A stretch of DNA of 64,000 nucleotides, from positions 1-64,000 of the forward strand of contig MEDY01000223.1 in the NCBI GenBank assembly GCA_001724265.1. The letters run 5' to 3'. Numbering within the stretch: the stretch's first letter is position 1; each line of letters begins with the position of its first letter. Source of the DNA: Rhizaria sp. SCN 62-66 (taxonomy: Eukaryota). Shown piece after piece: positions 2,670 through 55,325 of the stretch. The position numbers and the translations under genes are program-made. Under the pieces are notes generated by a model. The model saw nothing but the letters and a program-made list of their open reading frames with translations, ran no database searches and was not told where the DNA came from.

Positions 2670-5463
2670 TCACGCGACGGGGCACACGTTGAGGATGCGG
2701 AGGGTGTACAGGTGGTGGACTCCGAAGTAGTGCGTCAGAGCCGCGGCGAACACGAACATGTGCCACCACTGGTGCGAGGAGCAGAAGATGTCAAAGCGAC
2801 CCGGGAAGCATCGCTCGGGCACCTGGGTGATGTAGATGCAGGCGCCGCCGATGTAGAGCCCCCCCATGGCGACGAGGTAGAGGAAGACACTGAGAGTGAA
2901 GCCGTCGAGGAGGGAGTAGTGGACGAAGGGGCCCGAGCCGAAGAGCCCCAATGTGATGAAGAGGAGCACGCGCGGGGTGCGGAACGCTGTGCCCGCGCAG
3001 CGTGGGTGAACCGTGACGACGAACGTGGCCAGACAGCCGAGCGAGATCAGGAGCATGTACAGCTGCTGCGGCCCTGGGTGGCAGTAAAGCATGTAGTAGA
3101 TCATGGGGATGTTGCTGCCACCAATGAGGAACGCAATACCCGCATAGTCAAGCCGCACGAGCTGCTCGGCCATCTTAGGCGACATGGAGTAGAAGAGGTG
3201 GAACACGGCGGAGCACGCGAAACAGGCCATTGCGGAGATGATGAAGACGACGATAGGCCAGATGGGCAGCTCGTCTAAGTACTCCTCGCCCAGGTCTAAG
3301 TACCGCAGCAGCGCCAGCGGCTCAGGACCCTCCCTGTGATGATGATGGTTGTTATCGCCCATCTCGTGACCGTGGCCATGACCCTGGTCGTGGCCGTGTG
3401 AGTGGCTGAGTCTATCGAGCTGTCTCCTCGCATCCCTCTGCTCCTCATGCTGGATATACTGCACGATCGGCGCCGCGACCTCGATCAATTGTTGGTACAC
3501 CTCGCCCGCAGCCTCGCGCACAGCCGCTGCGGCGGCACCCGCGCCGGTGCCGGTGGCGCTTTTGGCCAGCTGGATCGCGTCCATGGCGCGCTCGGCGGCG
3601 CGCTCGGCCTGGAGTCATTGAGAAAAATAGAACAGATGGAGGCATATATGCAAATTGTGTGAGTTAAAATTGGAATGCTCATATAAGCTTATATTATGTT
3701 GAATTTCATGATCATAGAGCAACATTACGAAGAGACATCTGATTTTTTTGCAATCACGCGCTTGCGTGTTGTTGAGTTTACTTGTTCCGTACCTGTCGTT
3801 CGAGGGCCTCGGTGAGCGCCTGCAGCGACGAGTGCTTGGCACCGGCGCCGCCCGCCCCCGCCTGCTTACTATTAGTGGACCACCAACGGCCGGCGCGCTT
3901 CGCGAGGATCGACGCAATGGTCCTCGGCGGCTGTTCCAGGGCCTCATTGTCACTATTGTTGTTACTATTGCCATTGTTGCTGCCCTCTGTAGACGCGGTG
4001 TCAATTTCGTCTGCGACGGTCTTGAGCAGTGCCCGGAATGACTCCTTGACGCTGCGGATGCGGTCCACAGTGGCGCCGGGCAGCGAGCGCAACAGTTCGC
4101 GGGAGCGGCGCGCGATGCTGGGGTCGAACCGGGCATTGCTACCAGTGCCAGCGCCAGTGCCAGCGCCAGTGCCAGTGCCAGTGCCAGCGCCAGTGCCAGC
4201 GCCAGTGCCAGCGCCAGCGCCAGTGGCGCTGCTGCTGCTGCCGCCCTGTTGCTGCTGCTGTTGCTGTTGCTGCTGCTGCTGCTGCTGCTGTTGGGATAGC
4301 AGAGCAGCGGCTTCGGCGTCAGAGACGCTCTCAAGCTCGAGCAGAGCCTTGTTCGCATCCATCCCAGTCGTTGTCGCAGTCGACGTCGCAGCGGCGGTGG
4401 CGGTTGCGCTGGCGTCTAAGGGGGCACTCGCGGTCATGAGTTCCCTGTACGCGTAGTGCTCGCCCTCGATCGGCATGAACAGACATACCGCGACCAGCAT
4501 GAAGATCATGAAGATGAACGCGGCAGCGTGGGTCCACACGTTGAACGTCTCGTTGTGGAGGTGGAACAGCGAGCGCAACGCCTCGCGCGCCGAGAGATTG
4601 TACCGGTAGCCACTGTGGATGAACGGGTTGTCGCGAACCCAGTCAGGCGCGTCCGCCAGTAGGCTGTAGCGTGCGTTGCTGCGGGGAGCGCCGTGGCCCG
4701 AGCAGACGTGAGCGCAGCGCGACTTGGGCTGAGCGTCCTCCTCCTCAGTGGCCGCAGGGGCAGTCGCAGTTGCAGCTTTGGCAGGCTCGGAGGCTGTCTC
4801 GGTGTTGAGGGGAGAAGAGGCGAGGGAGATCACAGAGCCTGTGTCGGTGGTATCGTTGCTGATGCTGCCGATCGCAGTCTCAACCACGGAAGCAGCGGCA
4901 GCAGCAGACTTGCGAGCGCTGGAGCGGGCAGAGCGAGAGCTCCCGGTCACAGTCGCAGTCGCCGTCGTCGTGTTCGCAGTGTTGGCGGTGTTCGCGGCGG
5001 TGACAGCAGCGCGAGAGCGTGAGCGTGGCCGGCTATCCGTCTTCGCCGCAGTGTCAGCGGCGGCGGTGACACGAGGGCTGCGGGGCTTGCTCGCCGACCG
5101 TGCCCGCGACTGAGAGCGCGACTGGGACCGCGAGCGTGATTGCAAAGGCAACTGCGACTGGGCATGGGCGTGGGCGCGGGCCCGGGAGCGGGAGCGGGAG
5201 CGGGATGAGCTCGATGCAGCTGCACCACTTGAGGCAGTGGCAGGGAAGGCGCCATTCTTGCCCGCAGAAGCGCTGGAGGTCGCCCTGGAGGCGCCAGCGC
5301 GGCGACGCAGCGTCGCGGCTTCGTCACGGGGCTCGGCGGCCGCGGCGGAGAGTTGTTGGGCCGCGTTCGAGCCACGGGCAGCGGCGGGGCCAGTCTGCGT
5401 CGCGGCAGCGGTGGCGCCGGGGGCGGCGGAGCGGGGGCGCGACGGGGCCCGGCGGGCGGACAT
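2670..5463 (-). CDS. PAQR / adiponectin-receptor-like (Hly-III family) 7-TM protein (~869 aa), exons 5463-3793 and 3608-2670
   Basis: Motifs NPFIHSGYR, HNETFNVWTH, SAVFHLF, DYAGIA, PERCFPGRFD, SHQWWH. Phase-0 intron GTACGG..CAG joins the two ORF-track ORFs. TGA stop. Start ATG inferred. Confidence 0.9.
4142..4224. repeat. Hexamer tandem repeat (CCAGTG/CCAGCG)n encoding Gly-Ala/Gly-Thr in the PAQR gene, next to a CAG/CAA poly-Gln tract (~4246-4293)
   Basis: Directly visible in the sequence. Confidence 0.9.
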
Positions 5464-6186
5464 GGCGCTGCGGGCAACGTGAAATCGCAAAAAATAAGGG
5501 TTAGTAGTAAGGTTTGGTGCGGGGGAGCGCTGGAATGAGCGAGAAAGGCCGCTTTCGTCACAGGCCAGTGGCACGGCCGAGTCAGCGAGCCGGAAACGGT
5601 TATTTCCACGCACACGTTCCGTCCATTGCGGTATTATATGGCACAAATATGAAAACAAACGTATAGTAGCGGAATAAACAATGGGATTCAATCTCATGCC
5701 GATCTGCCCGATATAAATCCCGGTTTGCGTTTTGACGACGCCCTCCACATTTCTGACCGTGGGCTTTCGCCGGCAGATCGGTGTAGGTCTCGGTCGGTGG
5801 CGGCAGAGGCAAGACTGTTTAGCCACCACACAAGGGAGGGAGAAGAGCTTGCGCAAAATCGCTATGGGGCGCGTCAGCTCGATCGTCAGCGTTGGCCGCG
5901 TTTTACCATGTGTATATATTCCACACACTGTGTTAACTGTGTTATTTTCGATCCGTCCCAAGGGCGCGTTTGTCCCCGCTCTAATCCGCATTCACACCCA
6001 CTGCGCCTCTCTCCAAGCTCGCTGTCCGCACGCCCGAACGCGTTATCGACATCCTTCCCGCCCACCTCTACTTATATAACTTCACCACACCAATCTATAC
6101 GAACTAACCTAACTTATCCCTCACTTTCACTTGATTATGCATCTATTACTTCTCGACTGGCCTGTCTTTTAGCTTGCGCCTCTGAT

Positions 6187-9598: not shown

Positions 9599-10163
9599 AG
9601 CTGAGGAAAAATCATATCTGAGAGTAGCTTTGTTTAGTGTTCAAAACAGCGTGACTAGGGTCAGTCGGGCCAAAATACCAATAGTGTTGTCGTGGAGGTG
9701 AGGTGATGCGTACAGAGTGTGTTTAGATATAAAAAGCTAATAAACAAATAATTGTATAAAAATATACTATTTTTGTGTCCGGCTATTCATTTTTTCATTG
9801 AACGCCAATTCATTTGCATGGATGCCAGAGTTCTGTCCAAATGTGTTAGTAGCGTTATCTACACAAATCATTGAGATTCTCGGGATGCTGGACTTTGAAG
9901 TGGGGCGTATCAAAAATTAAAGTCTTCAGTTATTTAATCTTGTTTAGCATGGAACTTGGGCGAGTGCATTTAGGTTAATCTTGCATTATCATTCGCCGTT
10001 CACTGCGCACTCACCACCGTTCGCACACCAGACTGTCTTCCAGAACGCTCTCCGATTCTTTTCAAGTCTTGACTATTAAGTGAAACATTTATTTGCATTA
10101 ATTGCTGCATTGAAAAAACGAAGTGATGAACTTGCAAAACGCAACGTTCTACTCCACATAAAC

Positions 10164-13100
10164 TTACCTCACCTGAGCCTTGTTCTTTGTCCCCCGGTAG
10201 TTCTCAAGCAGCGGAAACGCATGCTCGCGCACAAACTGCATCATATCCGGCGACGCACCGGCCACCCGCGCGCATGCCAGCGCCGCGTTATGCGCTGCTG
10301 CCTCCCAGCGGGGGTTGTCCCGTCGCACCAACAGCATCACGCACGCGCCGATTGCGTGCAAAACGCCAACGCCCTCAAGAGGCCCCGACGGCTGCACAGT
10401 CGCGACTTTGGCAGTAGTCGCTCCGGCAGCCGTCGCGGCGTCTAGGACAGCGGCCAGCCCCGCTTGTTGCTCTTCGAGCTTGGCCTTCTTAGCTGCGCCA
10501 GCCAGGAATGCGCCGTTGATATTGAGCGCCGATAGCACCACGCGCGCCGACGACAGCACAGCGTTGCGCACGAGAACCGACGGCGCTGCTGAGAAGTACT
10601 TGTTCCAGTCAGCCTGCGGCACCAGAGTAGGCGGTAACTGGGCAATTTTTATGACGATTTGCGCAAAGTTGCCCGCCGTCTGCGGCGACCACGAGTTGAG
10701 CGCAAGCGACACAACGCCGGCCACGCCCGAGCCTGACGCAAGAGTCACGGCGTCGTGGAGGCTGTCCTCGCCGCGATCGCCCCAGATGCAGAACTCGACG
10801 ACTCGCGCGGCCGCCAGCGCGCGCGCAACACCGGTGGGCAGTGCGCCGGCCGGCTCTGGCAGCGTGGTGCCGCGAGGCAGCCTCGCGTGGTCCGCAGTGG
10901 GGATCGGGTCAGTCGCCCGCGCCCACTGCTCCATGAACTCTCGGTCTACGTGCACCGCCCTGCCGCCGTTTGCCTGCGCGGCCGCAGACGCAGCCTTGCG
11001 CGCAGCATGCTGCGCAGCGGACGCTGCAGCTTTTGCGGACACGGGTGCCGGATCCGGGAAGTAAGCCAGCTCGCGTGACGCCTGCTGCGGGTCATGCTGG
11101 CACATGATTGCAACAGCGCGGAAGCACGAGTCGCTGAGCTCGATAAGCTCAGCCAAGCGTGCAACGGCGCTGAGCTGTCGCGTGCGCCGCTAGTCGGCCA
11201 ATGCATCTGTCTTATTGTCCTCCTTGCCAGCGGGTGCGGCTGAGGAGTTGTCCGGCAGCGTTGCAGCGACCACCGCGGCGATCCCGGTGCCCAACATAAA
11301 CCCGATGCCGTTGCGCGCAAGCATGTCGTCGCGTGCGGCAAGGCTGCCGGCGAGAAGCCGGGTGAGCAGGGTCACGGCAAGCCGCATCAGCGTAATGTCG
11401 AGCCCAGAGCACTGGACGACTGGCGGGCTAAGTCCGGACGGCGGGGGCGCTACAAGCGCGAAGAGCGCCCAGGGTAGCGCAGGCGTGGCTGCGACAATGC
11501 GCTCCGCAGAGTGCACGCCTTCGGAGACTGCCAAGTCTAGCAGCAGATCAAGACTTCTGCGCAACAACTTCATGTAACTGATGATCGTCGCCATTCCAGA
11601 CGCGTCTCTGTGCAAGGTTGCTTCCTTGGATGCCGTTAAGCGGTCAAGCACTGATACATTTAGAATACACAACAACGCGCGCAGCGCAACGCAAGCGACT
11701 ACCTCCAAAGAGTCCCCCTGATCTTTGGCCTCCCCGTCCTCGTTATCCTCCTTAGCAGCTAAAGCAAGGGCAGCAACACGATCAGGGGCAGCAGCAGAAG
11801 TTGCAGTGGCGTCGGCTTCTGTGTTAGTGCTATTGTTGCTCACGGGCGCAGGCAGACTTGCACTCGCAAGTTTTTTCCTTGAGAGCTCCTGGAGCACAGT
11901 CAACGCGCTACTCAGAACCTCTGACGCGGATGCCAAGGCGGCAAAGTTGAGCTGCCTGCCGACAGACATGCCCATGCTGGAGTGCGCCTTGACGCCGCAG
12001 CGCTCCACGTGCGTCCGCACGTACGCACACCACGCGCCGTCGGCAAACGGCGCGGCAGCCATCGCGGCGTAGCTGTTTTCCCGACCGTGTGCAGCCTGGT
12101 TTGCAACGTCAAGTGTTTTCCGCGCAGCCTCGCTCGCACGTTGCGCGTCATCGACCTTGAGCGCCAGCTCTGCCACGGCCGCCGCATCCGGCTGCGCTGC
12201 CGCCGCTGACTTACCGCCCTTGCCGCTCTTGGCGCCACCCTTAGCCGCCGCGGACCCCTTGGCGCCCTTTGACTGCGTGGCCTCATTGAGCTTCTTGCGT
12301 TCCCGCGCAAGCTGCTCCTTAGCGGCCTCTAGCGCGCGCGTTGATTGAGAGGCGGCAAGGTATGCGCGTGCAACAGAGGGCACTGTTGGCATCATCTGAA
12401 ACTCCGACGACTTCGTTGGCACCAGGCTGGGGAAACCGACACCGAAACCAAACTCCGGTCCCGCAATGGAGTGCTCGCTCGACGCGTCATCGGCCGCGTC
12501 CCAAGCGACGCGCAGCGTGTTTTGCAGCTCAGATATTAGCGTAATCCCCGGTTGCCAGCCGCGCTGAACGAGCGCCTTGAACTGCGTGTCGCGAGCAAGG
12601 CCCTCGGTCATGCTGAGGAGGTTTTGCGTCGCGCTACGCCGCACTAACCGTTGCCCGCTTGGCAGCACTGATGCCGAGCCAAAGGGGCGCGGCGCGCTTG
12701 TCCAGGCACCCGTGGAATCTGTTGGGCTTGCGGAAGTCGCGATCGCGTCTCCAAAGGCCTGTAGCTCATGTTTAGTGTACGAATCAACCTGGAGTGCAAT
12801 GGCTGTAGCCATCACCAGCGTCTCTAGCACATCGTCACTCGGGGGCGCCGCGTTGGCGTCAGGGGCAGCAGCAGCGGCGGTGCTGGCATCAGCGCCCGCA
12901 CTCGCGCTTACCGACAATGCCGGTGTTGCGGGTGTGGCCCCGCTGACGATGAGTTGCGAACGTGCTGTTTCTGACTGCAGTACATTGAGCAGCAGCCCAG
13001 TCGCCGCCTCAAGCATGACTGCAATTCCGCTCAGCCACGACTCAGCGGGCGCAGCGAAAGCGGCGTCAGCTGCAAACATGAGAGCAACACGAGTCTCACC

Positions 13101-16100
13101 GGCTGAAAAGCGCCCGCAGTCGCAATCGTTGTAGCTCTCCAGTCCTCTGAGGTCGATCATGCCAGGATGGGCGGCGTCGCCATCGACAAGCACGTGTACG
13201 CCTTGCATGATTGCGCCCTCGAGTTGCAGCAGCTGGTGCACAAGCCGAGCAACGACGCGGACCGCGCCCGCGCGATAGATGTTCTCGCGGCCCGTCTCCG
13301 TCGAAGCCGCGTTGCGCAGCGCCGACAATGCGCGGACCACCGTTAGCCACTGAGAGTCGATGGTCTCTGCAATACGCTCCTCAGCTATGTACGCGCTGAC
13401 AAGCTCGCTTGCTGCAGCGCCGTGGTGCACGCGCTCAGACCGCGGTGACGGCGCCGTCCAGGTCTCTTCGGCTTCACGCGCGGCGGCACGCATTCGGCGG
13501 AGCACCAAGTGGGCGATGACGTGGATCCCGGGCAGCATCGTCACAAAAAATACGAGTGCGCGCGTAAGCATGCGCTCAACGCCGAACTCGGCAAACTGGA
13601 TGCAGTCCGGGTGCGGCGCCCTGGCAAAGAAGTTGAAAACCGCGGCTGAAAACGGCACTTGGGACACGTACCGACTCCAGAGCTGCGTTTGTAGCTCGCG
13701 AAGCGGACCGAGAGCAACGCGCGGGTTGTCTGTCAGGAGTGCCGCGGTGTACTCTAGCTCGGAAGCCACAAAATTCGCCGACGACAGGATTGCGGTAACG
13801 CGTTGACTTGATCCCGCTAATCCTTGCATTGGCACCCTTGTTGAATTGGCACACCGTATTAGAAAGTCCCGCGCAACAGCCAGATCACTCGAAACGCGCG
13901 CGTTGATGTCGGCGGTCACACCTGGGATGTACGCAATTGTCTTCCACAGAATTTCCAGCTCGTCCCGCGGCACACTAGCAAGCGCAGCCCGCGCGACCGC
14001 CACCGGTACCAGGGGCTTGGCCAGCGGATTATCCCCGCGTGCTCCAACGGCGTGAAGGTCTGTGCCGCCGCGGCCGCCGTTGCGGTTTGAACTCCACGTG
14101 TTAAGGCCTCGGAAATAGTCGGTTTCGGAAACTGACTCAATGCCGTTCACGTAAAGCATTGCATAAGCTTGCGCAGGCTGCGACAGAGCGCCGAGACGTC
14201 CTCTTGCCATCAAATGACAAACCGACCGACTGTAATCGCGGCTTTGCGCCCTTTTGTCGACGTCCGCACCGAGACAGCCGACGTACTTGCTGCGCCAAAG
14301 AAAGGCGGCGCTATTGCGCCCTGCCGCAACAGCGGCGCTCTGATATCCTCCGTCACCGTCGCCGTCATCGTCGACACCACTGTCATCGAACCCGCTGAAG
14401 TTGCCCAGGATGCTGGTGTCGTTGCTGGAAACGTTTTCCCGACCGTTGTTGCTGCTGCAGGTTTCGGACAACTCGTCACTGTGGAAATATCCGTCGCCGC
14501 GGCTAGGGCGGCGGCTGTGCGTCTCTTTGAAGTCGCAATTGATATCCTTGCTTTTAGAATCACAGCTGCCACTGACGGCACTCTCCTTGTGACCGGCATC
14601 ATCCGGGTCAAGCCAAACAACATCGTCGTTCTCAGGGTCTTCACTGCTGCTGCTGATGTTGTCAGCGTCAATGTCCACACAGGAACCAGGCGCCGCAAAC
14701 GCAGACTCGAGCGCAACGCGACATGTACCGTAAGGCTGTGTTGTGTTTCCGTTCAGGCTTGGACTCATGTTGCGCACACTCTCTTGATCGCCTTTGCTTG
14801 AACGCATTTGTTGCTGCTGGTGCTGCTGGTCCTGGCGCTGTTGTTGCTGCTGTCTGGCTACTGCCCACGCCTCTTCATGCATCAGACTGGCAACAGACGC
14901 ATCGCTGCTCTGCTGTTCTAACATATGCGCAATCTTGTCGATCTCGGGCGGTACGGAGATGTTGATGTGTTCGCACAGCGCGGTGCACTTGTTGCAGTCA
15001 GACAGCGCGTCACCAAAGCTGCCCAACGCCTGCAATGCCTCGATGCGACGGAGATACGCTTTGACCGGCACTGGAACGCCGCCCTTGTCCTTCGCGGCGA
15101 CGGGAGACAGCTCACCATCCTCCAAGTACTCGAAGATGTTGATTGCAGTCGATGCGTCCTTGACCGCGTCTTGGTACTGCTGTAGTTTGTTGTGGCACGC
15201 GGCGCGGTTTGCGTAGTACGTCTTGTTGTCTTTGCAAATGTCAATAGCGGCAGAGTAGTATTGCGCAGCAAGAGTGTACTGCTCCTGCTTAAACGCATTG
15301 TTTCCGAGCTCTTTAAGCAGGTCTGCCTCGCGCGGCCCTTCATCACACGCTGCCACAGCCGTTTCTAGCGCAGCGAATGCGGAACTGTTCAGGTCAGCGT
15401 CCAGGATAAGCTTGAAAAGCTTGTCGCAGGCGTTGTTGATGTTGTTTTCAGCATCTATCAAAGAGACATACAAATAAATGGATTGCGAATAAGTCGAATA
15501 TAAGACACGTGTACTGTGAGACAACGTCAGCAAACACTACTAGTTTATGATGCACTTTGACATATTGACGTGCGACTTTGTTGATGCAAAACACTTACCC
15601 AGGTCCCAGAAGTCCCAAACCGCGTGGTTTGGGCCCTAGATACCGTGGTTCGAGAGGCCCATAGGTCCTGCTTCCATATGTAGGGACGCCCAGCCCTCCT
15701 CATCGCTTAACAGCCCACGGTCCTCGAGCCACTGCTTGCGCCGCTGACGGCGCCGCAAGATGACTCCGAGTTGCGTCGCCCTCGCCACACACGCGCGCAG
15801 CAGCCGCTCACGACGGGCAGCGGCGCACACGGTGGGCTCTGCGCAGCGCTGGCATGTAAGATTCGAGCTGTTGTAGTACTCCCACTTGCATTGCTCGCAG
15901 TAGCGCTGGCAAGCCTCGAGCATACCGTCATCGGCACGGCCAGCCGCAGGCAGTGCCGCATCCATCGGGGCGCTTGTCGGCTTGGGAGACGTACCAGAGC
16001 TCTCAGGAATACTTGCAGTGAAGTACGCGGACACCTTGGTGTCGTAGTCAGCGTCGGGGTCAAACGTGCCGTTGCAGATGTCATTGATAAGGCGGTTGAG

Positions 16101-16151
16101 GGCTGAGACCCGAGCGACTGCAGAAGCTTTAGTCGAGGGTGGGGTCGACAT
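10164..16151 (-). CDS. TTC12-like TPR + armadillo-repeat protein, copy 1 (~1947 aa if TAG is read as sense); exons 16151-15599 and 15454-10164; in-frame TAG at 15636-15638 and 11190-11192
   Basis: TPR carboxylate-clamp pattern (LKELGNNAFK..YYANRAAC..KAYLRR). C-terminus NAALACARVAGASPDMMQFVRE resembles, from memory, the TTC12 C-terminus. Phase-1 intron GTAAGT..TAG is shared with copy 3. The 3' end could splice at ~10172/10167 instead of ending at TAA 10164. Confidence 0.75.
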
Positions 16152-16805
16152 TGGCGCTTAGCTACGCCTTTCTATCACAAGTCAGATTACAATACAACAT
16201 AATGAGATAATGTTAGTGCGCGATGTTTCCCAAAAGATTAATGATTTACCTCAAAAGCTCTGATGGTCGACGTCGCATTTTGAGGGGCTCCTTTCCCCAT
16301 CACATGAAAAAGGCAGATCTTGCAAGATATAACGAGGATTTTGATAGTTATATTTTAAATACGCTACATTTTAAGTTGTTCACTTTTTGTTTCTAAAACA
16401 ACATTTGATGGTCGTATGATTTAGCCTCTATCCTGCATTTATCACCTTCGCATGTGAGAGGACCCAAGGCAGGTCACAGTTACCACAGCTTGATTCGCAA
16501 TGTGTTGATCAAGACGTAAGATTTGTGAAAGGTAGAACTTGAAAAAATCCATAAGACATGTTTTAATGAATAGGTTCATTATGCTGTTGTAAAATAGTTT
16601 CGTTCAAAAGTCAATGTATTGAGAAACGTAAAAACAAAGGTGTGGTAAGTTTCGCTCCGTCGGCTGCAGTTGTTCGTAAGTATAGATTCATTTCGTGTCT
16701 CTCTAAAGTCAAAGACATGGAATATTTTTAACACCTAATATGCACAGGTCACACCATTATAAAACAGCTATGTAGCTTTAAGTTGCTTTTTTCAGCTTCG
16801 TTCGT

Positions 16806-21164
<4,359 letters not shown>

Positions 21165-21294
21165 TGGCACCAAACTAGAGTACGAACGCCTTTCCTACAA
21201 AACTAAATACACCACACAATGACGTATGAACGTGGTTATTTGACTTAAGCCATAAATGCGCGTGAATTCAGCCATCGTGTTTCGGTGGTGTTAA

Positions 21295-21850: not shown

Positions 21851-24800
21851 TCAGGCTGACTGTGACTGGCTATTTGATGACGCAGCTTCCCTTGCGTCAG
21901 TCTTTCCCCGATAGTTCTCAAGCAGCGGGAACGCATGCTCACGCACAAACTGCATAATCTCCGGTGACGCGCCGGCCAGCCGCGCGCACGCCAACGCGGC
22001 ATTCTGCGCTGTCGGCCCCCAATAGAGGTTGTTACACCGCATCAACAACATCACACAAGCGCCCACTGCGTGCAAAACGCCAACGCCCTGCAGGGCAGCG
22101 GAGGCGGAGGTGGAGGCGGAGGCGGAGGCGGACTTGCCTGCCGGCGCAACGCCGCGAGCCGCGTCTGGCAGCTTTAGCAGCGCGGCAAGCTCTATCTGTT
22201 GCTCTTCGAGCTTGGCCTTCTCGGCGGCGCCGTCGAGGAAATTCGGGTTGACGTCGAGCGAGGCTGATACAATGCGTGTGGACGTAAGGACGGCGGTGCG
22301 CACTAGTGCTGACGGGGCCGTGAAGAAGTGCTTGCTCCACTCGGTCTGTGAAACCATTGATGGCGGCAACTGTGCGACTTTGACGACGATTTGCGCAAAG
22401 TTGCCCGCCGTCTGCGGCGACCACGAGTTAAGCGCGAGTGTAACGAAGCCAGCGATGCCGGAGCCCGACGCGAGCGTCACCGCATCGTGGAGGCTGCCTC
22501 CGCCGCGGCTGCTCAGGTCGCAGAGCTCCACAACGCGCGCAGCGGCCAGTGCGCGCGCGACACCGGTGGGCAGCGAGTCGACGGGGACAGGAAGTGGAGA
22601 GCCCGCGGGGAGCTTCATGTGCTCCGCTCCCGGATACGAGCCCGCCGCCCGCTTCCACTGCTCCATGAACTCCTTGTTGATTTGCACAGCCTTGCCGGCG
22701 TTCTCCTTTGCTGCCTTGGTGGCAGCCTCGCGCGCGTCGGGCAGCGCGGCCGCGGCGGCGGCCTTGGCGCTGACCGGCGCCGGGGCTGGGAACAGATCGA
22801 GCTCGCGCGAGGCCTGGTGCGGGTCATGCTGGCACAGGATCGCGACAGCGCGGAAGCAGTGGTCGCTGAGAGCTTTCAAATCGTCCGACAACTGCATAGT
22901 TTCATCAGACACAAGCGTTGTCCCGCTGATCGGCAGTGTCGCGGCTGCGACGGCGGCGATGCCCGTGCCGAGCATCAGCCCAATGCCGTTGCGCGCAAGC
23001 ATGTCGTCGCGCGCGGCCAAGCTGCCGGCGAGAAGCCGTGTGAGCGCGGCTGCGACGCGCACCAGCGTGGCAAGATCCAGCCCCGTCGCGGGGACGGCGG
23101 AGGAGCTCATCGCGCTCGGCGGCGGCGCAAGCAGCGCGAAGAGCGCCCAGGGCAGCGCGGGCGTGGCTGCGACAATGCGCTCTGTCGACCGGGGGCCCGC
23201 GGAGGCGGCCAGCTCCAGCAAGAGGACTAGGGACACCAGCAGCAGCGATGAGTTGCTCTGCAGAATGCTCATCGGCGTCGCGTTCGAGGCGTGAGTCTCT
23301 GCCGCCGCCTTAAAGCGGATGTGCAGCGGTGCGCTAAGTACGGCGGCAGCGGCGCGCAAAGCGACGCGCGCCACGAGCTCCAGACACGTTTCCTTGACGT
23401 TCGTCTCCGTGTCTGCGTCTGCGTCAGCGTCAGCGTCGGAGTCGTCGAAATCAGAGTCTAAGCCGGCCTCGGTGTCGTCTCGCTGGCGCCACCGGACGGG
23501 CTTGTTGGCGAGGTACAGACACACGGCCTCGTCGGCCACGAGGAAGGTCGTCGTCTGGAGGACAGTAAAGAGCCGTGCCGCGCTCGACGTCGCGGCCACG
23601 TTCTGCAGCGGTTGGTTCACGGGGACGTTCTTGGCCCCTGCAAGCCGGACACCGCTGGTCTCGAGGAGACGCTGCGCGTACTCGCTCCACACGGTGTCGG
23701 TGAAGGGCGCGGTGACGAGCGAGGCGTACTTGTTTTCCATCTCGACGGCTGTCTTGTGGGCGCCGTCAAGCTTCTCCTTTGCAGCGAGGGCCGAGAGACG
23801 CGCTAAGGCCGCCCTCTTAGCAAGCTCGATCGTCTCAACATTCTGCGCCAGTGACGACGACGATGATGATGAAGAAGAAGATGAGGAGGTCGACTTGCCA
23901 CCCTTGACAGTCGTTTTGCTGTTCTTTGACTGCTGCTGTTGCTGCTGCTGCGCCTGCGGCTGCTGTGCGGCCTCGTTTTTCTTATTATCGCGTGTGACCT
24001 GCTCCATCAGGGAGTCCGCCTCCCGCTGCAGCCGCGTGAAGTCATAGTACGCACGGGCGACGGCCGGCGCAGTGAACGGAAAGCGTGGCTCATGGGTATT
24101 CGCGCAGGGAACGCCGACACCGAAACCGAGCTCAGCCCCCGCGACCGAGTGCTCGCGCGCCGCGTCCCTACCGTCATCGCCGCCGCCGCGGATGGCCTTG
24201 ACGAGCTCGGACAGGAGCAGACGGCCCACAATCCACCCGCCGCGCACCAAAGCGCGGAGAGCCGGGTCACACGCAAACCTGGACGCCACGGTCAGCAGGC
24301 CCTGGGCAGCGCTGCGCCGCACGAGCCGTTGCGCCGTCGGCAGCACAGACACGCCCCCCACAGGCACGCCCACAACTACGCCCACAGCGACGGCTCCGGC
24401 TCCGGCTCCGGCTGCTGCAGACACTGTTGCTGTTAATGTTGTGGGAGTAGCGGAAGCGTCCTGTGCGCTTTGGAGCTCTGCATTGCGAGCCATGGCGTCG
24501 TAGGTGGCCTGGGTATACCGGTCGGCGCGGAGCGACAACATGGACGCCGTGATCAGTCGCCCCAGCAAGCAGTCGTCGTCGTCTGCGTTCCGCGGCTTGG
24601 CATCAGCCTCAGTCTCAGCATCTGCGTTGGTGTCGGCGTTAGTGTTGCCGTTGCCGTTAACGTCGCCGCCGCCCTTGTCTTTGCTGGCGGCGGTTACCGA
24701 CTGCACATACCTGGTGACGATCTCCGTGTGGACGTCATCCGACTTCAATGTCTCACACAGCAGCCCCGCTGCGGCGTCGAGCGCGACCCCGACCGCGCTA

Positions 24801-27800
24801 AGCCACGACTGCACGGGCGCCGCCAGCGCGGCGTCGGCAACAAACATCGCTGTCGTCCGGAGGGCCTGTTCGTCGCGTAACAGCGCGGTCGTCACGCCGT
24901 CATCGGGCGCGCCCAGGCCGCCGACGTCAACCGTCTCCGGCGTCGCCTCACCACCGCGCGCGCGAACGGCCACAGCCTGCATGAGGCACCGCTCCAGATG
25001 CAGCAACATGATCACAAGCCGTGTAACGACGCTGAGCACGCCCGAGTGCAACATGGCCTCCCGGCCGCCCTCGGCCGCAGCGACCGCGCGCAGGGCCAGC
25101 AGCACGCGCACGAGCGTCGTCCAGCGGCCGTCGACGCACTGCGCCAGCGCCTCGTCCTCGAGCGTCGCCTGGTCAAGCTGCCGCAAGCCCGCGCTGCCGC
25201 GCACCTGCCCCCGCAGCAACGGCGTCGACGCCTCTCGCGCGGCGGCGCGCGTGGCCGTCACGCGCTGCTGCACCACATCGGTGATAGTATGCAGTCCAGG
25301 CAGCATGGTTACGGCGACGAGCAGCGCGCGGGCCAAAACGCGCATCTTGGGCGCGCTGGCGGCGATGGCGGCGCGCTCGGCCAGCGGCAGCCGCGGAAAG
25401 CTGTTCAGCGCCGCCGGCACCAGAGGCAACTGGTCGACCGTCTTAGCCCACGCGAGCGTCTGGGCAGCGCGCAGGGCACCCGCGGCGACGCGCGGGATGA
25501 GGCCCGCTTTGACGGTGTGGTGAAACCGCGCCGCCTCGTCGCCAGCGATGGCAACAATCTGCCTCAGACGGGCGTGGAGTGCCGCCGCGCCTTCACCGCC
25601 GCCGAAGTCGACCCCGCCGGCGCTCTCGCCCAGCGGCACTTCGAGCGGACCGGTGTAGATCTGCAGAATGTTCAGCGCGGCATCCGGGTCGGTCGACACG
25701 CGCGCAGCCAGGTCCTCCGCCACGAACGGAATGTGTGCGAGCATCACGCTGAGGATATGAAGCTCTTGGTGAGGCACGCCAGCCAACGCGTGGCTGGCGA
25801 AGCTCTCGCGCACTTTGTCCGCCACCGCGACGTCAGCAGTGCCGCCGCTGCCGCCGCCGCTGCCACCGCCGGCGTTTGTGCGCAGCGACGTTGCGCCGGC
25901 CCTGCTGCCGCCGCGGCCGCCGCCGAAGCCGCCGGTGCCAGACGCGTTCATGACGCTGATGTAGCTCAGACGGACTTTGTCGAACTGCTGGGTGACTGAG
26001 GTTGCGTAGCCGCGGGCTTGCTCCGAGAGCTGATCCATCCGGGTGTAGATCATGTTGTTGTATATTGCACGCGCGCGCTCGCGGCTGCGGCCACGGGCGC
26101 CTACGTCCGCCCCTGAGGTGCCGGCAAAGGAGCGCAGCCACATGAAGCCATTTCTGTTATTAGTGCCCTCATTTTCGCCTTCGTTGCCGCCTTTGTTGTT
26201 GTGGTTGTTGCCGTTGTTGCTGCTGTTGCTGCTGTTGTTGTTGCTGTCGCCACTGTTGCGAGCCTTGTTGTAGCCGTGACTGTAGCCGTCATAAACGCCG
26301 TCAGAAAAACTCTCTGGGTCACTCGAACTGCTAGTAATGTTCTTGATATGATTACTGATCCGTTGAGCACTGTCAGTGTCGAATTCGGCAATGTCATTCT
26401 CTTTTTCAGGATTACCGTCAATATTGCCCTTACCATCGCCATTACCAGTGCTGCGGCCGTTAAGCTTGCCAGTCAAGCTCAAGTTTTTGCTGACCCGGCT
26501 GTTCGCAGCGCCAACGACAGCGTCGTTGTCAGCACCAGCGCCAGCGCCAGTGTCATTGCCGTTACTACTGCCCTTGGTGCAGTTGGCGTTCACCCGCCAC
26601 CCGTCGAGCGAGCCCCCCGCCGCAGCGCGCTCGCGGCCTGCGCGGTAGGCCTCGCAGCTCTGTGCGCGCACGGCCTCGGTCAGCCGCGCGAGCTCCGGGG
26701 GAGGCGCGAGCCCGTTGGCGCGGCACAGCGCGGCGCACTCGTCGCAGTCAACCAGCGCGTCGTCAAACCACCCCAATGCCTGGAGAGCTTCGATGCGGCG
26801 GATGTAGGCCTTGATCGGCACTGGCACGCCGCCACCGCCGCCGCCGCTGCTGCTGCTGCTGTTGCTAGACGCTGTTGCTGTGGCCGCTGCTGCTGGGGTG
26901 GTTGTGGCGGCACAGGCGGCGGTAGATAGCACGAGCTTACCGTCCTCCAAGTACTTAAAGATGTCGATAGCCGTCGAAGTGTCCTTGACAACATCCTGAT
27001 GGCGCATCAGCTTACTGTAGCACACCGCACGGTTTGCGTAATACACCTTGTTGTCCCGGCAGATGTTAATCGCGGCTGAGTAATTCCGCGCTGCAAAGTC
27101 GTACTGCTCTTTTTCAAACGCGACATTGCCCAGCGTCTTGAGCCTCTCAGCCTCGGCCGTGCGCCCAGCGCGATTCTCGCGTTCCAGGATCATGAGTTTC
27201 TCGACGCCGGAGAATTCTGCGCTGGCCAGGTCGCCCGACATAAACAGCTTGAAGAGCAACGAGTCTGCTTCAGAGATGTCGTGTGCCTCGTCTACCAAAA
27301 AGAGATATGATGCGCAGGTTAATGGGAAAGACAAATGATAATGATGTGGTGAGCTTACGGATGTCGGAATATGCTGCACTTTGCAACGCAATAATACACT
27401 ATGAAATATGAAACACGCAGTGAGCAGTGATCCAGCACACAGGTAAGAATATGCGTCAAAAGTTAAAGCTTTGTTGTTAGCTGTTCTGTCGCAAAACGTA
27501 CCCATCTATCCCCAAAAGTCCCACACTTCGTAGTTGATGCCAGAGGGCTAGCTCACAAGAGCCGCAGCAACCGGAGCCGTTTTTTTCTTCCCGCCGCCGC
27601 CGCTGCCGCTGTTACCCGCGCCCGCGCCGGTCGAGGAGTCCGTGGCCGTTGCGGAGCTCTTGTCACGCGCGTCCCGATCGGCCTGCCACTTGGTATGCTG
27701 CCGCTGCCGCATCTTGCAGACGCCGATGAACGTGGCTTTGTCCGCGCACACGCGCATCAACCGCTCGAGGCGCGCCAAGGCCGGGACGGTGGGGCCGGCG

Positions 27801-28114
27801 CAACGCTGGCAGGTGATGTCAGTGGGACGGTAGAACTCCCACTTGCAGTGCTCGCAGTAGCGCTGGCAAGCTGCAGCCATGCCGTTGCCAGCGCAGCCAG
27901 CCGCGGGCAAATCAGAGTCAGCAGTGGCTGAGGTTGAGCAATGTGTTGTCGGCGCTTCGGCGAACGAGGTAGGCGACTTTGCGTGGAAGTATTCCGGCAG
28001 CTTCGTGGCATAGTCCGCGTCGCGGTCGATGGTTCCGGCGATGATACCCTGGGTCAGCTTGTTGATCGCGGCACATCGGCCAAACGCACCATCGTCAGGT
28101 TCGGTGGTCGACAT
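21851..28114 (-). CDS. TTC12-like TPR + armadillo-repeat protein, copy 3 (~2017 aa); exons 28114-27502 and 27291-21851; in-frame TAG at 27548-27550 and 27506-27508
   Basis: Same architecture and same phase-1 intron as copy 1 (..VWDFW..|DEAHDIS vs ..VWDFW..|DAENNIN). TPR LKTLGNVAFEK..YYANRAVC..KAYIRR. TGA stop. Confidence 0.8.
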
Positions 28115-28876
28115 TTGCACCAAACGAAGGCAAACAACGCCCTTTCCACTGTGAGTTGGGGTCAATCAAAAGAAATAGAACGAGATTAGCCAATATCGTT
28201 CACATAGGTGCGAAAAATCGGTTTGTCTCCACTACGTGGTCTCAAGGACGGATTTCTCAAGGTATACGCATGATTTCAAAGTCAACCATGTCAGGATAGT
28301 GACAGTTTAAGTTATAAAATAGTGGAATAAGTACAGAATTTGCGGTGACGATTTGTTTATGCCTCTTTTCTCCGTTGTCATTAAGCTGGATTTTTGATGT
28401 GGATCGCGCCCTCTGGGCCCACAGTCACCGGTGTGCTCACCACAAATCACAATTGACACCATACTTGACATCATAAATCGGCCTGGATCTGCCGAGATCA
28501 CAATGAGACTCGAAAAAACTTGAAGGTCGGGAAAATAAAGGGGAAATATGTTGCTTTTAGCTCGAGGACGATTATCGCCGCATCTATAGGCACATGAAGT
28601 TGCAAGCACGTGGAGTTTTATCATGCTACGTGATTATTTATTGGAACTCGTGTTAGACCAGAAGGTTAACGCTACGCTATGAAATACATCTTTGTAAATC
28701 ACTAAATCTTATAATACAATCTCTCTTCAAGTAATATCTAAGTTGTCGTTCGTCTCACTGACCCAGATCAAGACAAATCAGTCAACTGAACAACCATCAC
28801 CGAGAGCTCTCAGTCAGTTACGTACTACGTAGTAACTACTCGGTCGGCCTGTCAGCTCAGCAGTCAGCAGTTCGCT

Positions 28877-31658: not shown

Positions 31659-33406
31659 TCAGAGGTCGTCCTCGCCGTCGGGGACGAAGGCGGCGTTGGC
31701 GGCCTCGAGCTCCTGGGCGTACTGGGCCATCTGGGCCTCGTCGACGGCGGCCTCCTGTAGATACACACAAAACGCAAACGAAAAAGCGCGCGATAGATTA
31801 AGGAGTATGCAAATGTGGGGGAAAGAAAGAGAAAGAAAAAGAAAAAGCAAGGGAAATTGGTCAGCGTGGGATCATAACAGGCGCAAAATGCGCGATAATA
31901 TGTTCATATAGATCCAGAAAGACCGCAAAAAGGCTAACTCAGGAGTGATTGTAGTCCTTAAATGCAACGAGAGTATAGAGAAAGCGTGGTTAGAGTGGTA
32001 ATAGTGCATACCTGGGGGACGAGGGCGATCTCCTTCTCGAACTTGAGGTCAGCCTTGCCGGTGAGCTTGTACAGCAGGTACCAGAAGGGCTTCTCGTAGT
32101 GGTAGTGGGACTTGGCGGAGATGTCGTAGTACTGGATAGTGCGCTTGCGGTGGAACGAAATGTCGTTGGGGAGCACTGTAGAATAGAGAGGAGTGAAGAA
32201 CATATGGTAAAAGATATAAGAGTGGATTTGACGCACAAGATAGAATCATATAGAAAAAAAAGTAAAATATAATAAAGATTAAGTAAAATTGGACCTAGAT
32301 ATGTGCGTTTTGTTGTTATTGCACGTACCCTCGCGGTTCTTGCAGTCAACCTTGTTGCCGCAGAGGACGATGGGGATGCCAGAGCACACGCGGTCGAGGT
32401 CCTTGTACCAGGTGAGGACATTCTTGTAGGTCACACGGGTGGTGACGTCGAACATGATGATAGCAGCCTCACCGCCGATGTAGTAGCCCTCGCGGAGGTG
32501 GCCGAAACGCTCCTGGCCGGCGGTGTCCCAGCAGTTGAAGGTGAGCTCACCATAGTTGGTGGGGAAAGTGAGGGAGCGAACCTAAAAGCCGTGGAAAAAA
32601 CATAACAGCAAAGTGTGGTGAGTTAAAATTTGAAACATCAAGAAACCATACAAGAATCTACAGTTTTCTAGATAAATTCGGTTTAGATGCAAAGATATAG
32701 AGGGAATTAAGAACGTACCTCGACACCGATGGTGGGGATGTAGCGCTTCTCGAACTCACCGAGACGGTGACGCTTGATGAAGGTGGTCTTGCCGACACCG
32801 CCGTCGCCGACGAGGACAAGCTTGAACTCAGGACGCTGCTGCTCAGTAGCCTGTGAGGTAGTAAAGCGCGCAGATCGTAACGAGAGCGAGGGAGAAAGGT
32901 GGATGGTTGGCAGCAATCGTGAGGCCAGAGAAAGGGCGGGAACAGTGACGAGGACCGTCAGGAGAGGAAAGATAGCGAGGTTGGAGAAAAGGTATAAAGC
33001 AAAGGGAGGGTAAAAATGTGAGACAATGCGTGTAGTGAATAAGATGAGACTGGTAGGGGTGAGATTCGTGGTCAGATTTGAACTTTGAGAAGCAAGGCAG
33101 AGGGACCAGTTCGAGAAGCCGGCGCTTAAGGTTGTATCACATGCCTTGATACAACCAACAAAGCGGAGCTATACAGACGGCAATAGGATCAAACAAGTCT
33201 TATCAGCGTCCTCAAGACATATGGACGGCAAAAGCGCGTTGCTGGAGATCGCTGAAAGTGTGATCAAGCAGTTCCGACCTGGAGGAGTCCGTTGGCACGG
33301 ACGTCGCATCGCAAACATCGGAATCGGCGTTCCTCACCGCACGATCACGGGAAATACATTTGTTACAAAACACACAACAAAGTCATGAAGCTATTAGACG
33401 TACCAT
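31659..33406 (-). CDS. RAN: GTP-binding nuclear protein Ran (215 aa); exons 33406-33404 (ATG only), 32850-32719, 32581-32329, 32175-32012, 31754-31659
   Basis: [52 protein letters not shown], acidic tail PDGEDDL. Spliced length is typical of Ran. The ATG exon is inferred. Confidence 0.95.
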
Positions 33407-45000: not shown

Positions 45001-48000
45001 ATGTACGGCCACACGGGCCGCGAGTCCCTCGAGAAGGTCTAGCTCATTCGGCTCGAAACCCAACGCAACATCGACCTGATAGCCCGCAACCTCCGCGGCT
45101 CATCCCCGGCCTACCACCAGCCCCCGCCGTCGCAGCCGCTGTACTCGCCCTCGCAGACCTACTCCCCGCACCACCTTCCCTACGGCGGCGGCGGTGCGGG
45201 CGGCCACCACGCGCTATTCGCCGCGACCTCGCCTTCCGCCGGCCTCGCAGCCTCACACGGCCACGGCCACGGTCACGGTTTCGCTGCTTATGGGGGCGGC
45301 AACGGAGGGCATCACCCGCATCACCCCAACGCGGCCGGCATCCACGACGGCGCCCTTGTCGTTGTCTCTCCTTCCAACTCCAACAACAGCGGTAACGCCT
45401 ACCCCCTGGTGTTGAGCTCCTCAGACGCCGCCGCCGCCGCCGCCACCGCCGCCGCCGCTGCCGACGGACAGATGCAGTTGCAACGCACTCTTGACCAGGT
45501 CCTCGACAGGCTCAGCAACGTCGAGCGCGCCACCATCGCCAACAACAACAACAACAATAGCATTAACAATGCGGCGAACGCGAGTGTTGGTGCCAGTAAC
45601 CGGAGCGTTGCCGGCGGGAACAATAGCCTCGCGCCTTCAGACTCAACCCTCTCTCTAAACAACAACAACAACGGGGGTAATGCTAACAGTGCTGACACTT
45701 CTGCCGTGAGTCTGTTGCTGCAGCAGCACGACTCCAAACTCTCGAGCCACGACACCGCCATTGCCGCCGTCGCCGATAAAGCCGCCTCTGCCGCCGCCAC
45801 CGCCGACAAGGCCCTCTCGGGCGCTGAGAAGGCAGCCACATCGGCTGACGCCGCCGCCGCCACCGCTGCCACCGCCGCCGCCGCTGCTGACAAGGCTACT
45901 GCGAGTGCTGAGAGGGCAGTGGCCGGCCTGGACCGTGTCACTGGCACCGCCGACCGGGCTCTGACCCTCGCACAAGACTCACGCGTCACCACGGAACGCG
46001 CGCAGATGACTGCTGAGGCCGCGAAGTCGACTGCGGAGTCCGCGAAATCGACTGCTGAGTCAGCAAAGAGCTCGGCAGTGACCGCAACTAGTGCCGCGGA
46101 CAAGCTGCAGCAGACGGCCGAGGCCGCGAAACAGACTGCCGAGTCAGCAAAGTCGGGCTCCGAGGCCGCGAGAGCGACCGCTGAGTCAGCCAAGCAGACT
46201 GCTGAGTCAGCAAAAAGCACCGCCGAGTCTGCCCGCGTCGGTCTCGACGCGGCACGGTCAGCGGCCGACGCCTTCAAGGCCAGCTGCGAGAGCGCTAAGA
46301 GCGCCGCGGACACTGCCAAGTCGACCAGCGAGGCCGCGCGGGCCGCCGCGGACCTCGCCAAGGTGACGGCGGACGCGGCGGCGGCGGCAGCGGCAGAGGC
46401 CGGCAAAGCGGCCACGGGGGCGGTGGCCAGGGTCGCGGCGGTCGAGGCCGCGTTGGCTCTCGCCCCGGCTCAGCTCTCGGTGCTGGCAAACAAGATGGAC
46501 AATGTCGAGCGTCGACTCAGCGGCAATGGTAATCTCAGTAGCTACAATGGCGGCTACAACAACAACGATCTTAACGCCTCTGGGTACAACAGCCACCCCC
46601 ATCTGCAACAACAGCAGAACCACAGTCACAGTCTCGGGCACAGTCACTTCTCCCCTTTTGCCGCTCCCCCCACTGCTGGCGCAATGGCTATGGGTGGCTC
46701 TGCGAGCGACATGGCCAGCATCAACGCCGCTGTCGCCGCCGCTGTGGCCGCCGCGCTGGCCTCCCGAGACGGCGAAGTCGCCGCACTCAAGTCCCACGTG
46801 ACTGCGCTGTCGGCGTCTGTCTCCGCGCTCACAGAGGCCTCGGCCGCCGCGCAAGTGACCGTGGGCGGCCTCAAGGCCACGGTGGGGGCGCTCGAGGAGA
46901 CGGTGGGCAGCGCGGAAGTCAAGGCCGCCGCCGCGGAGGCCAAGGCCGCCGAGGCTGCTGCTGCCGCCGCCGCTGCTGAGGCCAAGGCTGCTGATGCTGA
47001 GGCCAAGGCCGCCGAGGCTGAGGCCAAGGCCGAAGCTGGCGTTCAGAAGGCCCGGGAGCAAGAGAGAGCGTTGCGTAGTGCGTTAGCAGACGCCCTCCGT
47101 GGCATCGCTGCTAGCGGCGGCAACAACAATAGCAACAACAATGGTCATATTGCTGAGTCAGCAAAGCCGGGAATGATGGCTATGGCTGACATCACGACGA
47201 TCGACGACGAGGCTGCGACGGTTATGGCGAGCAACGAAGCCTTCGCTGTGGTCGTCGAGTCGGCGCCTGTCTTGGCGATCCCCAGCAGCGACACCGCTGA
47301 CTCTGCTGCTGCTGGTATGGCCGTCGCTGATGACGACGAGTACAATTACTCGTTCGACCAGTCTATGCCAGTCCCTCTGCCTTCGACTAACAGCTCTAAG
47401 CCCGCCGCGACCACTGCTGTTGCTGCTGAGGCTGGGACTGAGACTGCTGTTGCGTCGAGTAGTGAAGCTATGGCTGCTGAGCTGGCTACTCTCCGCTCGC
47501 AGCTCAATTCCGCCACAAACGACCTCACCGCCCTCAAAACGTCCATGGGCTCGGTTCAATCCACCGTCGACTCGGTCCAGACCACTGTGGGCGCCGTGCA
47601 AGCGACTGTAGGCGCCCTCCAAGTGACCGTGGGTGAGGTCCAGGTGACCGTGGGCGAGCTGCAGGCGACTGTGAGCAGCCAGGCGGAGGTCGTAGAGGAC
47701 GTGTACCAGCGCCAGGGCGGGCAGGAGGACGCGCTGGCTAGTCAGGTGATGCTCTTTAGCTCGGATTTGCATGATCTTTACAACCAAGTCGGCCGTTTCC
47801 CGCCCAAGTCTACCAGCAACAACAACAACGCCTCGAACGGTAACGGCACCTCTGAGACAGAGACTGCTGCTGCTAAGCCTGAGTCGGATGCCTCTGAGAC
47901 TGCGACTGGCAAGCCTGAGGCTGGTAAGACGGAGGCCGAGACTGTTGCTGTGTCCGCGCTGACTCAGCGCGTGTCGAGACTCGAGGGCCAGCTCGCTCGT

Positions 48001-54602: not shown

Positions 54603-55325
54603 GAGAGACAAAACAATGACTTTACGCAATAATGCCGACATCAGAATATTTATCTTGTCTTTTTGGATACTTCATATTGTTTTTGGTTCAATTAGTGATT
54701 ATTACTGGTTGTTTCACGCTTGTTTTATGATGAGTTTTGGTTCAAGAGTTACTTAGCTTCACGTTGAATATGATACATAGCACACGTATACGTTGCCTTG
54801 TCCGAGTAACACATTTAAATAATGGAAACTTGTGTAATTTTGTGGAACATATTCGCATTCTGTTTTATTTTGTCTTTATTTACGTGAACTGGTGTGTTTT
54901 CAGTGTGCTGACGTGTTGGCGCGTGTGGGATCGAGGTGACCGTGAGCAGCAGTGACCGTGAGCACAGCCGAGCGCGAGCTTGAAGCAAGAGAGAAGGGTA
55001 GTCGTACTTAGCAGACGCCAGAAGATATCACCTTCGAAGGCTTCGCACGGCTGCCAGCATGGTTCTTTCGGTCCAGGATTACTAGGTTAGCGAGAGCAAG
55101 TGGTGTTGGTTTCGCGTATTTGATACTATGAGCGGGGGACGTTGTTGATAGGGTCTATTTTCGATTCCCAGTGTGGCCGCGACGTCACCTCTCGTCCCCT
55201 CCAGCGCTTGCTCTTTCCGCCTCTTTCTGCTCCCGGCATCCTTTTCTAGCTTAATTCCCCCCGACTACTAGGTAGCTCACTCTTTTTACTTCCTGCTTGT
55301 TTTGTTTTTTGCGTTTTCCAGAAGC

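Follow-up and report, generated by a model that had tools for sequence, protein, structure and literature searches.

Very few eukaryotic lineages are known to have a nuclear genetic code with an altered meaning for UAG alone, to the extent that two recent reports cover them (PMC5304391, PMC11687900). Two of these lineages are presented by Panek et al. (2017, PMC5304391), both with UAA and UGA kept as stops: Rhizaria sp. exLh, a sainouroid rhizarian that reads UAG as leucine, and Iotanema spirale, which reads it as glutamine. In the section of their work that deals with exLh, 71 genes yield 384 in-frame UAGs, most of which occupy conserved Leu positions, and the ends of these genes are 56 UAA and 15 UGA. 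Phyllopharyngean ciliates form another case, with UAG translated as Leu or Gln and UAA as the preferred stop, and the genomic part of that study gives suppressor tRNA genes that back the claim in two of the three Leu-code ciliate genomes (McGowan et al. 2024, PMC11687900). Here we consider a window of 64,000 nucleotides (nt), that is, the whole stretch analysed of contig MEDY01000223.1 (positions 1 to 64,000), which is assigned to Rhizaria sp. SCN 62-66. It carries three tandem paralogous genes on the minus strand, and in the first of them, copy 1, the first exon runs through a TAG at 15636-15638. We think that the organism translates TAG as an amino acid and keeps TAA and TGA as stops, and we give this reading a probability of about 0.6.

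The likeness to exLh and Iotanema, as far as PMC5304391 describes them, is that UAG is the only codon that interrupts coding sequence, that true ends are UAA or UGA and that the organism is probably not a ciliate; in addition, the use of UAG is strongly unequal between gene groups, as in exLh. With the phyllopharyngean ciliates described in PMC11687900 it would share the reassignment of UAG alone, and UAA is the commonest terminator here as well; the features to be set beside those ciliates are a contig of ~58% guanine plus cytosine (GC) and GT-AG introns of 137-257 nt. Unlike the exLh dataset of PMC5304391, the window holds 8 TAGs in ~12,700 codons, all of them at variable positions. No description of this organism was found in the literature on wastewater protists with a UAG change or on the genetic code of Sainouroidea.

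The paralogues occupy 10164-16151 (copy 1), 16806-21164 (copy 2) and 21851-28114 (copy 3), and with TAG read through each of them forms a single frame of 1452-2087 codons. Copies 1 and 3 have in common a Cys-rich exon, a tail with the residues WDFW followed by an intron, a TPR region, and a long body with a well-conserved C-terminal domain that is possibly ARM-like. Exon 1 of copy 1 (15599-16151, minus strand) begins at ATG 16151-16149, encodes the Cys-rich N-terminal domain and stays open for 171 codons, up to ...SNHGI, before TAG 15638-15636 at codon 172. Past the TAG the frame reads GPNHAVWDFWDL and a single G (15599, phase 1), which is followed by GTAAGT (15598-15593); the original prediction, according to which the frame passes the TAG and reaches a GTAAGT donor at 15598, is thus correct to the base. 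The coding score of this exon is positive in frame 0 only.

The putative intron of copy 1 (15455-15598, minus strand, 144 nt, GTAAGT...TTTGATAG, GC 0.37) has a consensus donor, a pyrimidine-rich end in GATAG, a size and GC content like those of the introns of a Ran GTPase gene in the same window, and it keeps the frame. The Ran introns were placed by protein homology; they measure 137, 153 and 257 nt, start with GTACGT, GTACGT and GTATGC, end with YAG and have a GC of 0.30-0.41, and their resemblance makes the introns of copies 1 and 3 credible. Joining 15599 to 15454 would combine G with AT into GAT, an Asp codon followed by AENNINNACDKLF... and the TPR, and phase 1 with an Asp junction codon is found in copies 1 and 3 alike. 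The phase-1 splice proposed earlier does lead into the TPR frame; it is not needed to restore this frame, because exons 1 and 2 already share one frame, in which the 144-nt intron holds no stops other than TAG TAG. The open frame through the introns of copies 1 and 3 was considered as a signal of its own and rejected as not significant: both intron lengths are multiples of 3 and in-frame TAA and TGA are absent from both, but Ran intron B is a multiple of 3 too, and 5 of 15 intron frames are without TAA or TGA.

Exon 2 of copy 1 (10164-15454, minus strand) comprises the TPR, a long middle part, TAG 11190-11192 (codon 1654) and then 341 more codons, which make up the most conserved C-terminal domain, to the stop TAA 10164-10166. 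If TAG is a sense codon, translation of copy 1 would start at ATG 16151, pass the TAG in exon 1 and continue via the WDFW tail to 15599; the mRNA would be spliced from the donor at 15598 to the acceptor at 15455/15454, with removal of the intron in phase 1, and translation would then cross the TPR and the long ARM-like body, pass the second TAG and end at the TAA. Under this reading, there would be nothing unusual in the end of exon 1; it is the code of the organism that would be unusual.

Exon 1 of copy 3 (27502-28114, minus strand) is built in the same way, from ATG 28114 to TAG 27548-27550, PSGINYEVWDFWG, TAG 27506-27508, ATG and a G at 27502, so that its tail has two TAGs, the second of which (27508-27506) is followed by ATG G|GTACGT. 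The putative intron covers 27292-27501 (minus strand, 210 nt, GTACGT...TTTGGTAG with a GGTAG end, GC 0.40). Exon 2 of this copy (21851-27291, minus strand) reaches from the TPR to the C-terminus with no in-frame stops and ends in TGA 21851-21853.

In copy 1 the motif VWDFW takes up 15620-15606 and in copy 3 27526-27512, both on the minus strand, and these are the sole two matches in a six-frame translation of the window. As had been predicted, the motif is identical in both copies, and the 2 nucleotide differences inside it (GTT/GTG and TTC/TTT) are both at synonymous third positions. A profile made from the two exon-1 open reading frames (ORFs) of the window, cut before the TAG, was searched against 1.84 billion proteins without a word index and gave 6 matches at E<=0.001. 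Two of them are the window's own exon-1 ORFs (P0004, P0006), and the relatives found are P0007 (E 6e-48) and P0008 (E 5e-42); the remaining two, the repeat protein P0009 and P0010, are weak and were set aside. In both relatives the Cys-rich domain is followed by a variable linker and then by ...EVWDFWDWEL-GT... (P0007) or ...AAWDFWEP-GT... (P0008), with no stop between. Since they run unbroken through WDFW, the tail beyond the TAG is coding sequence in this family. The G-T residues after WDFW in P0007 and P0008 fit G|GTAC, with donor position and phase as in copies 1 and 3, and past them the two ORFs continue into an apparent intron. Exon 1 of the family is thus predicted to end just after WDFW, with one TAG inside it in copy 1 and two in copy 3. 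With WDFW unchanged in all 4 family members, its conservation exceeds chance. When exon 1 was used in word-indexed protein searches, the only match at similar length was the window's own ORF, and longer proteins gave none.

The earlier argument that the sequence past the TAG is under protein-level constraint, which is awkward if TAG terminates, is supported by these stop-free relatives with WDFW. It is also favoured because 7 other in-frame TAGs lie in coding sequence and no gene ends in TAG. As to the Cys-rich domain itself (15850-15920 and 27790-27870, minus strand), it has the conserved pattern CQ.YC..CKWE.Y......C.RC, which recurs in P0007 and P0008 and suggests a small zinc-binding module; it may resemble RanBP2-type fingers, and no Pfam family was found for the domain.

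The exon-1 TAG might also be explained with the standard code. In that case, an alternative 5' splice site would take the TAG of copy 1 out of the mRNA, or this TAG would end a small exon-1 protein, and the other TAGs would be nonsense mutations in decaying duplicates, which we judge quite unlikely. There is indeed a candidate upstream donor in copy 1, and it counts against our reading: G|GTATCT, with the exon end at 15644, is in frame and would give an intron of 189 nt (15643-15455, phase 1) that skips the TAG. This donor lacks the +5 G present in all five donors examined. In copy 3, CTT|GTGAGC (phase 0) is in frame with an AG five bases past the main acceptor, but its use would require this second, unusual acceptor; a TAG-skipping upstream donor in frame could exist for copy 1 only. 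Alternatively, the ATG just before the donor of copy 3 could start the 1884-codon ORF. Neither of the upstream donors is common to both copies, whereas the donor after WDFW is common to 4 of 4 members.

The TAGs outside exon 1 give the more general evidence. After removal of two introns, the three paralogues and an unrelated coiled-coil gene hold 8 TAG, 0 TAA and 0 TGA in frame in 7336 codons. The TAGs start at 15636 and 11190 in copy 1, at 20874, 20388 and 17400 in copy 2, at 27548 and 27506 in copy 3 and at 45040 in the coiled-coil gene, and the frame stays open for 161-995 codons after them. Homology, the ratio of nonsynonymous to synonymous substitution rates (dN/dS), codon usage and open frame all indicate that UAG alone interrupts sequence that is coding on both sides, as in a code with UAG as a sense codon. 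Copy 2 (16806-21164, minus strand) is one frame with TAGs at 20874-20876, 20388-20390 and 17400-17402 and the stop TAA at 16806-16808; it retains the start (MST...) and the upstream region, and its Cys-rich and TPR parts are gone.

After TAG 11190 (341 codons) and TAG 17400 (197 codons), the sequences align with copy 3 at 64-66% identity up to the common end HAFPLL.NYRG. In these post-TAG segments, which belong to the C-terminal domain shared by the paralogues, dN/dS is 0.24-0.28, the pair of copy 1 and copy 2 included; this pair is informative because both lineages would be untranslated there if TAG terminated. The codon-usage score after the TAGs is positive in frame 0 only (0.30 and 0.25) and the GC at third codon positions stays coding, whereas both collapse after TAA and TGA ends, the score to non-coding values and with an overall GC of ~0.4. 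The same order of domains is found elsewhere without interruption: P0005, a protein of 1591 amino acids from another assembly that is ~40% identical, has TPR, body and C-terminal domain contiguous in one piece. We infer from all this that ribosomes insert an amino acid at TAG.

The coiled-coil gene gives the same picture outside the family. This Ala-rich gene (45001-50763, plus strand) has its ATG at 45001, a TAG at 45040-45042 (codon 14) and the stop TAA at 50761-50763. The coding signal starts exactly at the ATG, with G or C at the third position in 13 of 13 codons, and the 143 codons after the TAG (45043-45471) score as coding and are without any ATG.

These results speak against decaying duplicates. 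There is no frameshift, TAA or TGA in the 5416 codons of the paralogues, all three copies reach the same C-terminal end, and copy 1 past its TAG 11190 is as conserved as copy 3, which is TAG-free there, with 15 lineage-specific residue changes against 17. Moreover, the TAG of the coiled-coil gene sits between the start of the coding signal and coding-like codons that offer no later start, and on both sides of the remaining TAGs the sequence is GC-rich and can be aligned with the paralogues. On the other side, decay has two arguments that weigh against a changed code. TAG is the product of 62-64% of random nonsense substitutions in these genes, which gives a probability of 0.02-0.03 that all 8 are TAG under a decay model. 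In addition, copy 2, which has lost two domains, evolves faster at its end: after its last TAG it has 21 lineage-specific changes against 9 and 11, about twofold, and this may be relaxed constraint.

The behaviour of the three stop codons at ORF ends was compared in a table of ORFs that have coding-like usage and span 100 codons or more, in which some rows are exon ends that enter introns; a sliding coding score of 40 codons around every stop was too noisy and was replaced by this ORF-based table. Nine of these ORFs end in TAA and 8 in TGA, and after them at most 47 codons are open and the coding signal is absent. The rows that end in TAG are five, namely the three internal TAGs of copy 2, one exon-intron boundary of the Arp2 gene and one frame judged antisense to a coiled-coil ORF; after the TAGs of copy 2, 161, 995 and 197 codons are open and the scores are positive. 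Among the placeable gene ends of the window, which are a small sample (among them copy 1 TAA, copy 2 TAA and Ran TGA), none has TAG as a terminator.

The alternative that we consider unlikely, and somewhat less so than an ordinary code with decay, is that TAG is a leaky stop, read by near-cognate tRNAs or by a weak suppressor at particular sites, in a programmed or tolerated readthrough that gives a short and a long product per gene. Programmed stop-codon readthrough yields C-terminally extended isoforms, and C at +4 makes the leakiest stop-codon context. In copies 1 and 3, the relative amounts of a small Cys-rich protein and of the full TPR-ARM protein would then depend on the TAG before WDFW. 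As in programmed readthrough, an in-frame stop stands here between an N-terminal module and a conserved continuation, and C follows 5 of the 8 TAGs, in three cases as TAG CTC. The first TAG lies 6 codons before VWDFW in copy 1 and 8 in copy 3, within a linker that is otherwise unalignable, and the TAGs are rare, uneven and at variable positions. Moreover, a strong hairpin (11100-11185, minus strand) begins 7 nt after TAG 11190, with -47.9 kcal/mol, a z of -3.5 and 0 of 200 shuffles as stable.

This hairpin is not a shared property, since 6 of the 7 folded regions downstream of TAGs show no unusual structure, and no readthrough signal common to the TAGs is apparent. Several TAGs in series within a single gene and gene ends without TAG are further differences from programmed readthrough. 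Copy 2 would need three readthroughs in series and yet its C-terminal domain is constrained to the degree given above by dN/dS, and the absence of TAG from every placeable gene end is unexpected for an ordinary stop. P0007 and P0008 have no stop before WDFW, so a leaky stop would not be a feature of the family.

Editing of the mRNA at the TAGs, for example from UAG to UGG by adenosine-to-inosine (A-to-I) deamination, was also considered and seems very improbable. A-to-I editing of UAG to UGG occurs in the sexual stage of some filamentous fungi, and every interrupting stop here is TAG, which by our own reasoning is the sole stop that one A-to-I change makes sense. However, no homologue has Trp aligned with any of the 8 sites. 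In addition, a contig from a polyA RNA library (X8, 17340-17625) spans TAG 17400-17402 of copy 2 with its letters unchanged, and this speaks weakly against editing, as contigs drop rare variants and the library may contain DNA. The TAGs are identical in the DNA of contigs from other runs (X4, records 5 and 6) and of two contigs of JGI (L001 and L002), which are possibly not independent of the source of the window.

Translation of TAG as a sense codon is the reading that we prefer, and further points weigh against it. All the evidence comes from one 64-kb contig. TAG is sparse and unevenly distributed, with 8 in the 7336 codons of the four genes and 0 in 5375 codons of 6 other genes, a split with a chance of ~0.01 by our own calculation, and the conserved exons of Ran and Arp2 hold no TAG. 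The lineages with UAG as a sense codon in the cases presented in PMC5304391 use the codon often and at conserved Leu or Gln sites. In the window, all 8 TAGs are at variable positions, where the aligned residues are R/Y/D, N/G/T, L/E, I/D/Q or L/V, and no amino acid can therefore be assigned; Leu, found in one homologue or another at 3 of the 8 sites, is a weak lead as the residue inserted. Besides, the short tails that close exon 1 in copies 1 and 3 account for 3 of the 8 TAGs, and the position of the first hardly differs between the two copies, a pattern that would suit a leaky, maintained stop more than an ordinary sense codon.

The remaining point concerns the RNA. Contigs, not raw reads, of four runs were compared with positions 10000-19000 (one run of polyA RNA, two marked 'RNA?' that are probably DNA, and one of unspecified kind), a range that ends before the long (AAC)n run of copy 2. 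No contig in the four runs joins 15599 to 15454, where RNA cover is near nil (X8 depth 0.16), and consequently the splice is neither supported nor refuted by them. Contigs of runs X4 and X8 agree with the window as far as 15432, beyond which they carry up to 240 letters that are foreign to it (0 matches with at most 3 mismatches); read in frame, this stretch is an open, GC-richer, alternative N-terminal continuation. A splice junction at 15432 was rejected, there being no AG before this position, and the break was taken as a switch of the contig to another paralogue; the foreign stretch is probably a further paralogue or a strain variant elsewhere in the genome. Contigs also break at 15873 and 15914, where the loose letters resemble exon 1 of copy 3 when compared by eye.

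Should the change of code hold, the organism would add a case to a known but very small class, maybe at an unusually early stage. Each new case in which UAG alone is changed sheds light on the way in which a cell can survive the capture of a stop codon, and a lineage in which UAG has gone from gene ends and yet is rare inside genes would represent a stage that models predict and that is seldom seen. A more detailed picture is possible but doubtful, and we put it forward only as a tentative one: a wastewater protist, undescribed, rich in GC and poor in introns, that has ceased to use UAG as a stop and so far employs it sparingly (~0.6 per 1000 codons) at tolerant positions only, as an early codon capture or an ambiguous intermediate, with the UAG before WDFW perhaps still stopping part of the translation and so setting how much short protein is made relative to long. 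There is a practical side as well. Gene callers that apply the standard code split these genes, and the database entries are separate 'proteins' of 171, 188 and 1884 residues; proteomes predicted from such metagenomes would consequently be truncated wherever a gene has an internal TAG.

The window is eukaryotic, given that the Ran and Arp2 genes are broken by GT-AG introns. The Ran GTPase gene (~31659-32900, minus strand) is divergent and has three introns, and the Arp2 gene (~55300-57253, plus strand) has several. The contig is nearly complete in metagenome runs from bioreactors and wastewater; the organism is uncultured, and such metagenomes are all that it is known from. No tRNA genes were found in the window, and Rfam gave no match in it. 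A search of metagenomes with the alignment of the C-terminal domain returned the same organism only (L001 at 100%, and L002, which covers the end of copy 2 and the start of copy 1) and no orthologue.

With respect to the domains of the paralogues, the score of Pfam TPR_1 in copy 1 is 32.9-34.3 bits, above the cut-off of 27.8, and in copy 3 it falls just short at 26.7-27.1. No ARM family was found in the paralogues by Pfam, and feature similarity in the Atlas gave ARM-type leads only, with low shared counts; the earlier label TTC12-like for copy 1 is a tentative one. A Pfam scan that took TAG as X and covered 37 of 114 open frames containing a TAG gave no conserved domain across a TAG. In all three paralogues a GGAAAGG(G)CGT-like box lies ~25-35 nt upstream of the conserved CAATGTCGACC start (16150-16185, 21165-21205 and 28115-28155, minus strand), and copy 2 has it too despite the loss of the next two domains; the box may be a common promoter or an element of the 5' untranslated region. 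Outside the family, an ORF of 737 codons (3778-5991, minus strand) resembles the Pfam family HlyIII (PAQR) in that family's first 35 positions only, after which a Q-rich insert follows. Copy 2 contains a run of ~50 Asn codons (about 19090-19250, minus strand; (AAC)n), and long poly-N, poly-Q and poly-S runs are present in other genes of the same contig too.

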